From Eledone cirrhosa (taxonomy: Eukaryota), in NCBI GenBank assembly GCA_964016885.1, contig OZ024763.1, forward strand, positions 10,788,001 through 10,852,000: a DNA stretch of 64,000 nucleotides, written 5' to 3'. A program made the translations under genes and the position numbers. Positions within the stretch are counted from its first letter, which is position 1; each line of letters starts with the position of its first letter. Below the pieces are notes generated by a model. It did not search any database. It was not told the origin of the DNA and saw only the letters and a list, made by a program, of their open reading frames with translations. Below are positions 18,701 through 21,700 of the stretch, piece after piece.

Positions 18701-21700
18701 AAACTAAAACAATTCAAAGTAGAAGATTCATCTTAGCTATTACCCCACACAAAGACTTTATTTTTCTGATATATTTCTTGGTGTCAACATGTTCACAGTG
18801 TAATGGTATCAGTGACCAGGACAAACATGTTGACACCTAGAAATAAAAGAGACTTTAACAGTTTTTGACTGGGTCAAATGACTATTCCTGATAAAATTGT
18901 TGCTAACAGCAGAAATAAATATCTGAAGCAGGAAGTTGTATTTGAGAAACATTGTAAATATGTGCAGTAACTTTAGATATGTTGGAGGGACAGATGTAGT
19001 GCCCCAGTGACAGACAGAGAGATGTAGTACCCTAGTGACAGACAGATAGATGTAGTATCTCAGTGACAAAGTCACATGTAGTACCCTAGTGACAGACAGA
19101 TGTAGTACCTCAGTGACATACAGACAGATGTAGTACCCCAGTGACATACAGACAGATGCAGTACCCCAGTGAGATATAAACAGACAGATGTAGTACCTCA
19201 GTGACATACAGACAGACAGATGTAGTACCTCAGTGACAGACAGACAGATGTAGTACCCCAGTGACAGACAGACAGACAAATATAGCTCCAAAAGAGCAAA
19301 ATAAAGTTTGGCGAGAGAGGATGTGCAAACATTTATGGCTATTTGGGAGTAGCAGTGGTGTTGGTTGTGGTGGGAAAATATGATGAAAAACACCAAGAGA
19401 AATAAAGAACTCAGCTACAGACAGAAGATAAAGAGATGTAGAATTGCAGGAAAAATCCAGAACTATAGTATAATGCCAATAATATCTAGCATGGAATAGA
19501 ATATTCTAGATATACATCTATTAATATACCAGGAATGATTGGGAGAAGTGCAAAACCTACAAAAAGCATCAGTTAGAAAAAAAAAAAAGAGAAAAATACA
19601 GTGTGGGTGAAGAATGTGTGCAACTGTAACAGAGAAAAAAAATCCAGAAAGGTCGTTAAAGTACTAATTAGAGAGTGTGTTTAGGAAGTGATTATCATTA
19701 CTACTAATTTGTGTTTGGTAATTACCTTCTGTTGAAGGCAGCGGTTCGAGATCGGATCGATTGAAAAGATGAAATAAGCGGAAGTGGTGGTGGTGGTGGT
19801 TGTTGTTGAAGTTGTTGTTTACATGATCCTGATGATGATGATGATGATAAGGGGAAGAAGGATGATGAGGAGGAGAAGAAGTGGAATAAGAATGACTGTG
19901 TTGAGGATGAAGATAATGATGTTGGGGGGACTTGGATGTTGATGATATTTCGTTGTTGTCAGCAGTCGTGGATATGTTGATGACAGAAGGATGAGGAGAA
20001 GGAGGAGGTGGATTTGAAGAAGCATCAGTCCAGTTTCTGTTTTCATCTGCAGATTCATATATACTTGCACCACCTTCAACACCACTGTCGTCGTCATCTA
20101 GAGTATATGACGGCCCATGGCGGGAACACATCAACAACATATTTGACATGTGCTTGATGTGCAGGTAGGTCATCACAACCGATGCCATACTGGAACGCTT
20201 GGGTAGTGGAGCATGACCTGAAAAATCAGGTAGAACACTTCACGAGGGTGTAGAGAGGTTGCTTGTGGGTGGTGGTGGTGGCAGTGGAACAGTAAGAACT
20301 ACAAGACAACTCTACCCCAGCCAAACCCAGTTTACCAGTCACTTTCAATACTAAATAAAAGACACAGCCCATAATTTTCAACTAATTTTGAAAAATAATC
20401 AACTGGAGAATTTAGTAAATAATTTTCTAAATACCATATATCTAATGAAAGACACTGTCTATGTCATGAACCCTTTCATTACCATATTTCTAATGAAAGA
20501 CACTGTCTATGTCATGAACCCTTTCATTACCATATTTCTAATGAAAGACACTGTCTATGTCATGAACCCTTTCATAACCATATATCTAATGAAAGACACT
20601 GTCTATGTCATGAACCCTTTCATTACCATATTTCTAATGAAAGACACTGTCTATGTCATTAACCCTTTCATTACTATATTTCTAATGAAAGACACTGTCT
20701 ATGTCATTAACCCTTTCATTACTATATTTCTAATGAAAGACACTGTCTATGTCATTAACCCTTCTTAATGTCCCGCAGTCAACTGTCCAGTGGTCACCTC
20801 TCCAGTGCTGGTTCTATTTTGACATGACTGATGATTTGGATCTGATATGTTTAGTCAATGCAGTGTGTATTTATATATAGAGATATACACACACACATAT
20901 GTATATATATATATAGATACACACACACACATATACATATGTATATAGATACACACACACACATATACATATGTATGTATATATATAGATATACACACAT
21001 ACACATATACATATGTATGTATATATATATATATATACACACACACATATACATATGTATGTATATATATAATCATACACATATACATGTATGTGTATAT
21101 ATACACACACACATATATATCATGTGTGTGTGTATAGAGAGAGAGAGAGAGAGAGAGAGGGGGAGAGAAAATGCTTGTATGTTGTGCCACCATGTTTTGG
21201 AAATTGGAAATGCTGCTGCGACAATAGCATGGAAGGGTTAACTATTGTGTTGGTGTCAGTAACTGACCACAAAGAGAACTTACCTCAAACGTAAGGACAA
21301 GAGTTGAGAGAGGAGACGAAGCCACCCACCCCCACCACCCAACCAACATGAAGAAAAGAAAAGAAAGAAGGAACATGTTAATAAAATGTGAAAGGTCATC
21401 AAACCTTCTAGATCAGATATTCTCAAACTTTTTTACATGATAGATCTCCTAACAAAATACTGTTCACTCTCCTCACCAGATGAATTATTAGATTACAAAA
21501 CAATTTACCTATCTTTAATAGAACATATATGATAAAAGTGCCACTAAAGTATAAATGTAATATTAAATTATAAATCAACTACCGTATATACTTGAATATA
21601 AACCGAAAAATATGTAACAAAAACATTGACGGTAAAAGGGGTCCTATACAGGTTAATATTTTCCTGGTTTTCACCAGCTTCAAATTTTACGTAAGCAAGG

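Follow-up and report, generated by a model that had tools for sequence, protein, structure and literature searches.

The window analyzed here, 64,000 nucleotides of contig OZ024763.1 from Eledone cirrhosa, raises the question of why an intron of a GRK2/3-type kinase gene contains a long open reading frame placed behind a good splice acceptor. A first-pass annotation had read this frame as an alternative last exon that would replace the PH domain of the kinase with a tail rich in His, Pro, Ser, and Asn. In this work, we examined the host gene, the homologues of the frame, its splice sites, and the available proteins and sequencing reads. All positions are those of the window and refer to the minus strand unless marked otherwise.

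The host gene and its pre-PH intron

We found 13 exons of the host gene (55921 to 12563) by tblastn and boundary fitting to cephalopod GRK proteins, and within the window this model covers residues ~170–691. The constitutive pre-PH exon (23877–24036) encodes RH alpha10–alpha11 and a linker; read from the sequence, it ends at 23877 with a phase-1 donor (AAG|gtcaga, with gt at 23876–23875). An intron of 7559 nt separates it from PH exon 1 (16169–16317), for which the sequence and the protein isoforms agree on a phase-1 acceptor and a second acceptor 6 nt downstream (16311). PH exon 2 (15299–15415) and the last coding exon with the stop codon (12563–12709), which joins in frame, follow. The tandem acceptors 16317 and 16311 account for the 691- and 689-aa isoforms among octopod and squid proteins, so the pre-PH/PH junction is already alternatively spliced.

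The host model is 97% identical to the "rhodopsin kinase" of Enteroctopus, Argonauta, and Octopus over 517–519 residues and 93–94% identical to three named squid proteins; the host is thus the cephalopod "rhodopsin kinase" (octopus ORK, squid SQRK), with kinase, RGS, and PH domains. Pfam found RGS, Pkinase, and PH in P0021, which is 97% identical to the host. The best structures are those of GRK2/3 (human GRK2 structures at E 2e-299), and the combination of an RH domain, an AGC kinase, and a C-terminal PH domain places the gene in the GRK2/3 (GRKb) clade. Vertebrate GRK2 and GRK3 have the same architecture. Intron positions are highly conserved in this clade; from placozoans to humans, GRK2/3-type kinases share one domain layout and have almost identical sets of introns (PMC3307776). 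In the genome, we located a single GRK2-type locus and, elsewhere, the kinase exon of a GRK5-like gene (G000:C3:196154510-196154710, L005:1501-1698). GRK5 is the best PDB match of this exon (E 3e-35), so both GRK clades are represented. In the alignment with human GRK2, the point at which the frame would be inserted falls in the linker that precedes the PH domain, at a place that is already gapped.

Within the 7559-nt intron, a cag acceptor at 20220–20218 is followed by a phase-1 frame of 184 open codons (split Gly counted) that ends with a TAG at 19666–19664, and the acceptor, phase, and translation given in the first-pass annotation were all confirmed. This 3' splice site (20218–20237) consists of a pyrimidine tract and cag, and it scores 10.7, the second rank among the 362 AGs of the intron. 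The acceptor matrix was built from the gene's own 12 acceptors, and the donor matrix likewise from 12 sites; such small samples are a weakness, and the used acceptor at 16311 scores −5.9. The frame is the longest phase-1 open frame behind any of the 362 AGs. The second longest, with 176 codons from 19338 onward, crosses a 28-nt tandem array. As the annotation had suspected, such openness is unusual: simulated introns contained at least 184 open codons in 1/500, 2/500, and 2/500 cases (Markov orders 1–3), and shuffles of the frame were free of stops in 5 of 20,000.

The frame was also said to be neither a tandem repeat nor a recognizable transposable element. This holds for the frame as a whole, which is single copy genome-wide at both the protein and the DNA level (one match each, these counts being lower bounds) and has no matching Pfam family. 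The exception is a short two-copy repeat in the His/Ser tract (19840–19881), as reported by Tandem Repeats Finder. A transposon origin was considered and rejected, given the one genome match (at least) and the lack of any transposable-element family in Pfam. A PDB sequence search with the exon gave a best E value of 0.12, and the ESM Atlas had no usable match for the homologue P0001 or for the first 50 residues.

Homologues and conserved blocks

Homologues of the frame are few. A search of 100–321-aa proteins returned one relative among 50 candidates (P0001, E 3.5e-24), of which P0003 is a one-residue variant, and a HMMER search of 1.84 billion representatives returned two, P0001 and P0004 (E 4.8e-11). 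P0004 derives from a contig of 126 kb. These homologues are recorded only as independent ORFs (165–167 aa); Pfam gave them only sub-threshold compositional matches, and a metagenome scan with the three-sequence alignment produced 256 pattern matches, none of them confirmed.

Conservation is concentrated in two blocks (residues are numbered along the 191-aa stop-to-stop frame). Block 1, M18–D49 (20093–20188), is identical to P0001 at 28/32 positions and to P0004 at 22/32, and it comprises a predicted hydrophobic helix (M18–R40) with an invariant Cys, followed by an acidic patch. This Cys (C38, 20128–20126) is present in all three sequences and is followed by basic residues. Block 2, H152–E171 (19727–19786), ends in EPLPS-x-E and has identities of 17/20 and 11/18. 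Between them lies a Ser/His/Pro/Asn low-complexity linker (19787–20092) that is predicted to be disordered, with identities of 36/84 and 18/58; it is His-rich in all three sequences and variable in length. The spacing from Met to Glu is 154, 151, and 108 aa in the three sequences, and both blocks stay in frame despite the changing linker, as would be expected if selection acts on a protein whose middle part is disordered. Judged from these patterns of conservation, the open stretch 20217–19726 is protein-coding.

The upstream end of the frame points to entry by splicing. A stop codon lies eight codons above the split Gly with no Met between them, and the match with P0004 extends above the first Met, so translation should enter through the acceptor. 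At the acceptor itself, P0004 has LPGFSD where the window has LPDFSG, and K-x-S-S before the Met is kept; as far as can be judged from the protein, P0004 could have its acceptor at this position and in this phase. The onset of conservation near the acceptor is visible in P0004 only and is weaker over the first 10 residues.

This weaker onset also bears on a different possibility, namely, that an internal promoter in the intron drives a kinase-less product, which would start at the Met at 20188, splice to the PH exons, and yield a helix-linker-PH protein that binds G-beta-gamma. Strong conservation indeed begins at S-S-M, with M18 invariant and block 1 opening at its ATG in an A(−3)/G(+4) context; the 10 residues ahead of it are identical to P0004 at only 4/9 positions. 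A perfect AG|GTAAGT at 21284 could end an upstream non-coding exon, and the conserved donor described below would fit such a transcript equally well. However, the phase of the acceptor agrees with the Met as well as with the upstream GRK donor, and in P0004 this agreement survives an indel of one codon. Phase is of no consequence in a 5' UTR, which counts against this origin, and no PH-only protein was present among the results of the searches made with the tail. We consider a kinase-less product improbable.

Exon boundaries and the fate of the PH domain

The downstream boundary of conservation is sharp. Similarity to both homologues ends at E171–G172, exactly at a phase-1 5' splice site (AAG|gtaatt, 19720–19725), after which identities fall to 1/13 and 3/19. 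Among the 24 GTs of the ORF, this donor scores highest, and among the 662 of the intron, it ranks fifth; its score of 7.8 compares with 3.3–12.7 for the donors that the gene itself uses. The residue after the Gly is N in the window, N in P0001, and K in P0004, as a GT-AA would give through AAN codons. AA stands behind GGT at 10 of 93 places in the intron, and AA occupies +3/+4 in 8 of the 12 true donors. The splice sites of the homologues are thus putative, as they are inferred from residues.

Behind the donor, the read-through tail to the stop (19664–19725) is likely intronic. The tail of P0001 corresponds to the +1 frame of the window on the zero-offset diagonal, with 7/13 identical positions including the stop and a score of 37 that none of 1000 shuffles reached. 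Its last 13 positions match directly after the donor, which indicates a one-base shift between the two lineages. The tail of P0004 has no significant frame match (329/1000 shuffles). DNA contigs of three sequencing runs (X1–X3) list no indel at the position of the frameshift. A terminal exon would also tolerate a frameshift in its last residues.

Consistent with these boundaries, we found that 19726–20217 has the properties of a hidden symmetric exon (phase 1-1, 492 nt, 164 codons), supported by splice scores and conservation. It is in the phase of the host intron, a multiple of three in length, and free of stops, its coding conservation is bounded by splice sites, and one homologue is frameshifted beyond the donor. 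The exon joins PH exon 1 in frame through either of the tandem acceptors and reads on to the normal stop. At matrix thresholds of 5 and 3, it is the sole symmetric open candidate of at least 150 nt in the 12 introns of the gene, and a candidate of at least 400 nt appeared in only 2 (threshold 5) and 8 (threshold 3) of 5839 simulated introns. At a threshold of 0, the 12 introns contain many other candidates. Cassette exons are in general a known kind of exon, and the reading that we favor as probable is that 20217–19726 is one of them, inserting 164 aa between the RH and PH domains while the PH domain is kept (~855 vs. 691 aa).

The proposal that the PH domain is replaced differs from this in what happens at the donor. 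The pre-PH exon would be joined to 20217, and the transcript would either read through to the stop at 19664 or use a small terminal exon (acceptors 19623, 19414, or 19556). The acceptor and phase fit such a product, the three homologous database proteins are all unspliced at the donor, and two of the terminal acceptors, 19623 (9.1) and 19414 (7.2), have good scores and lead into open tails. A C terminus of this kind would have a parallel in GRK4/5/6, which are targeted to membranes by C-terminal hydrophobic pairs and palmitoylated Cys (PMC3307776). Nevertheless, conservation stops at the strong donor at 19726, and the tail beyond it is neither conserved nor in the frame of P0001. Unspliced read-through is also what a gene caller produces on genomic contigs, as for P0004 on its 126-kb contig, and the genome has a separate GRK5-like gene. 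The annotation had itself named frameshifts in related species as evidence against its reading; such a shift is found in the tail (in P0001) and not in the first 164 codons. Thus, the conserved, coding, and phase-matched part of the proposal stands, and the last-exon form and the loss of the PH domain are not supported as proposed. We regard a PH-less isoform as unlikely.

Polyadenylation signals give such an isoform little support. The AATAAA that was cited in its favor is present at 18757–18762, but it lies ~900 nt past the stop and is one of seven in the 3346 nt of 19663–16318, close to what the background offers (1.1 per kb over the whole gene body), and this makes it weak evidence. Neither AATAAA nor ATTAAA occurs within 900 nt downstream of the stop. 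A degron-like stretch had also been proposed for the tail. The beta-TrCP phosphodegron has the form DSGxxS/G, and DSGVEG in the window (20072–20089) fits; the motif is absent from both P0001 and P0004 (0/2), so a conserved degron was rejected.

Isoforms and sequencing reads

If the cassette exon is included, its use must be rare or restricted, because all of the cephalopod proteins read skip it. Among 21 candidates, 16 proteins had E values of 1e-12 or below; 12 of these are full-length proteins of the cephalopod type, all of 689 or 691 aa, and the other four are of the vertebrate type. We also read five of six additional members of the cluster, among them RefSeq isoforms from O. sinensis and O. 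bimaculoides, and the exon is skipped in all five. The known ORK/SQRK isoforms accordingly differ by the 6-nt tandem acceptor (689/691 aa), and none of those read has a 164-aa insert. When longer proteins that contain the tail were sought, none of 370 candidates scored E ≤ 1, which is weak evidence. As far as searched, the exon is absent from the Octopus and Argonauta annotations fetched and from the literature (open-access, main texts); the same literature yielded no large cassette exon between the RH and PH domains of vertebrate GRK2 or GRK3. We infer that the exon is spliced in at some stage or in some tissue.

No sequencing run on record as RNA contained the stretch. Four runs were aligned to 19290–20430, a segment that excludes the flanking exons, and gave no joints. 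X1–X3 are DNA runs from one sample, possibly the assembly's own, and they cross both exon boundaries as DNA would. Their covered exon parts (19773–19886 is uncovered) contain no indel, and the one substitution listed there (20162) is synonymous and leaves an invariant Leu in place (n = 1). The fourth run (X4, type unrecorded) gave two short contigs with a depth of 2.5–3.1 that cover 19516–19772; it has no coverage over 19887–20217 and is uninformative there. One of these contigs crosses the donor unspliced. This crossing could be taken in favor of the PH-less isoform, and if X4 is RNA, it represents either read-through or an unspliced precursor.

The skipping of the exon in these proteins, with no junction and no annotated isoform, is also what would be expected if the exon lay outside the working GRK gene, either as a separate nested ORF starting from the Met or as a decaying relic that splicing now passes over; the occurrence of the homologues only as stand-alone ORFs agrees with this. 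Such an origin would leave unexplained why the conserved part is flanked so exactly by an acceptor and a donor of matching phase and why the two blocks remain in frame across three lineages, and the frameshift in the tail argues further against a stand-alone ORF that extends to the stop. We consider it very unlikely and retain the cassette exon as our preferred reading.

Predicted structure, possible function, and surroundings

AlphaFold2 (with the three-sequence alignment) predicted a helix over residues 18–40, with pLDDT of 72–82 over residues 21–40. Confidence was low outside the helix, and pLDDT in the linker was mostly below 50. The helix is hydrophobic all round. The moment of block 1 is 0.09–0.13, below the shuffle means; that of block 2 reaches 0.43, which at least 9% of shuffles matched in every segment scanned. 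An amphipathic helix was rejected for both blocks, as neither stands above shuffles. Complex prediction of helix residues 12–52 with the full kinase scored 0.29, against a mark of 0.34. Calmodulin binding or mimicry of alphaN would be further, speculative roles for the helix.

The C-terminal anchors of GRK4/5/6 combine an amphipathic helix, FFXXLF, and palmitoylated Cys, and the exon likewise has a hydrophobic helix and an invariant Cys near basic residues; the Phe/Leu cluster of block 2 also recalls these anchors. In contrast to GRK4/5/6, the exon has no FFXXLF match and few basic residues around block 2, and the PH domain is probably kept. Because its moments do not exceed those of shuffles, an amphipathic anchor of the GRK4/5/6 type was not supported.

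If the cassette exon is included, its long disordered linker would loosen the contact between the RH and PH domains, through which G-beta-gamma binding is relayed to the kinase; the RH–PH interface of GRK2 is a proposed allosteric route (PMC6841920). The hydrophobic helix and the invariant Cys within it would serve as an added anchor, either to the membrane (perhaps through palmitoylation) or to a protein partner. Compared with the short form, a long isoform of this kind would already be in position and would be under different regulation. Loosened RH–PH coupling together with an added helix anchor is a tentative model, and one that may well prove wrong. Should the exon be included, a conserved and optional insert of 164 residues at the RH–PH joint would amount to a natural experiment on untethering the PH domain and would offer cephalopods a route to tissue-specific tuning of desensitization. 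The retina, skin, and suckers of these animals all seem to be served by one GRK2-type gene (PMC8465341).

The two products from the invariant Met and from the full gene might also be combined into a cephalopod-invented switch, in which a long anchored kinase would be accompanied by a kinase-less helix-linker-PH sink for G-beta-gamma. We hold this to be as improbable as the kinase-less product itself. The engineered fragment betaARKct binds G-beta-gamma and acts as an inhibitor, and the helix-linker-PH protein, if true, would be its natural counterpart.

The 3' half of the exon (19726–19969) contains YCAY at 78 per kb, compared with 19 per kb in the intron, and this richness follows from the His codons. 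YCAY is linked to tissue-specific skipping by NOVA-type factors. On this sequence pattern, the His tracts may act as an RNA splicing element for tissue-specific skipping of the NOVA type.

Several other features were observed around the exon. Acceptor-like sites lie just downstream of its donor (19623, 19556, and 19414), and a variant (19573) and a one-base length variant (19634) fall in the tracts upstream of them. The only minus-strand AG|GTAAGT of the window (21278–21286) lies behind a pyrimidine-rich stretch and could be the donor of an upstream exon, a recursive site, or a chance occurrence. The pre-PH intron also carries a 48-nt tandem array (20432–20763), and a similar-looking array is found in another GRK intron (~33600–34260). 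Open frames at 24884–25261, 45790–46311, 53298–54063, and 59965–60972 resemble what we take to be fragments of retroelements or DNA transposons; Pfam matched none of five such transposon-like frames. Another GRK intron harbors, antisense to the gene, an open mariner-type transposase frame of 391 codons (36426–37601, plus strand; Pfam Transposase_1 and HTH_48).
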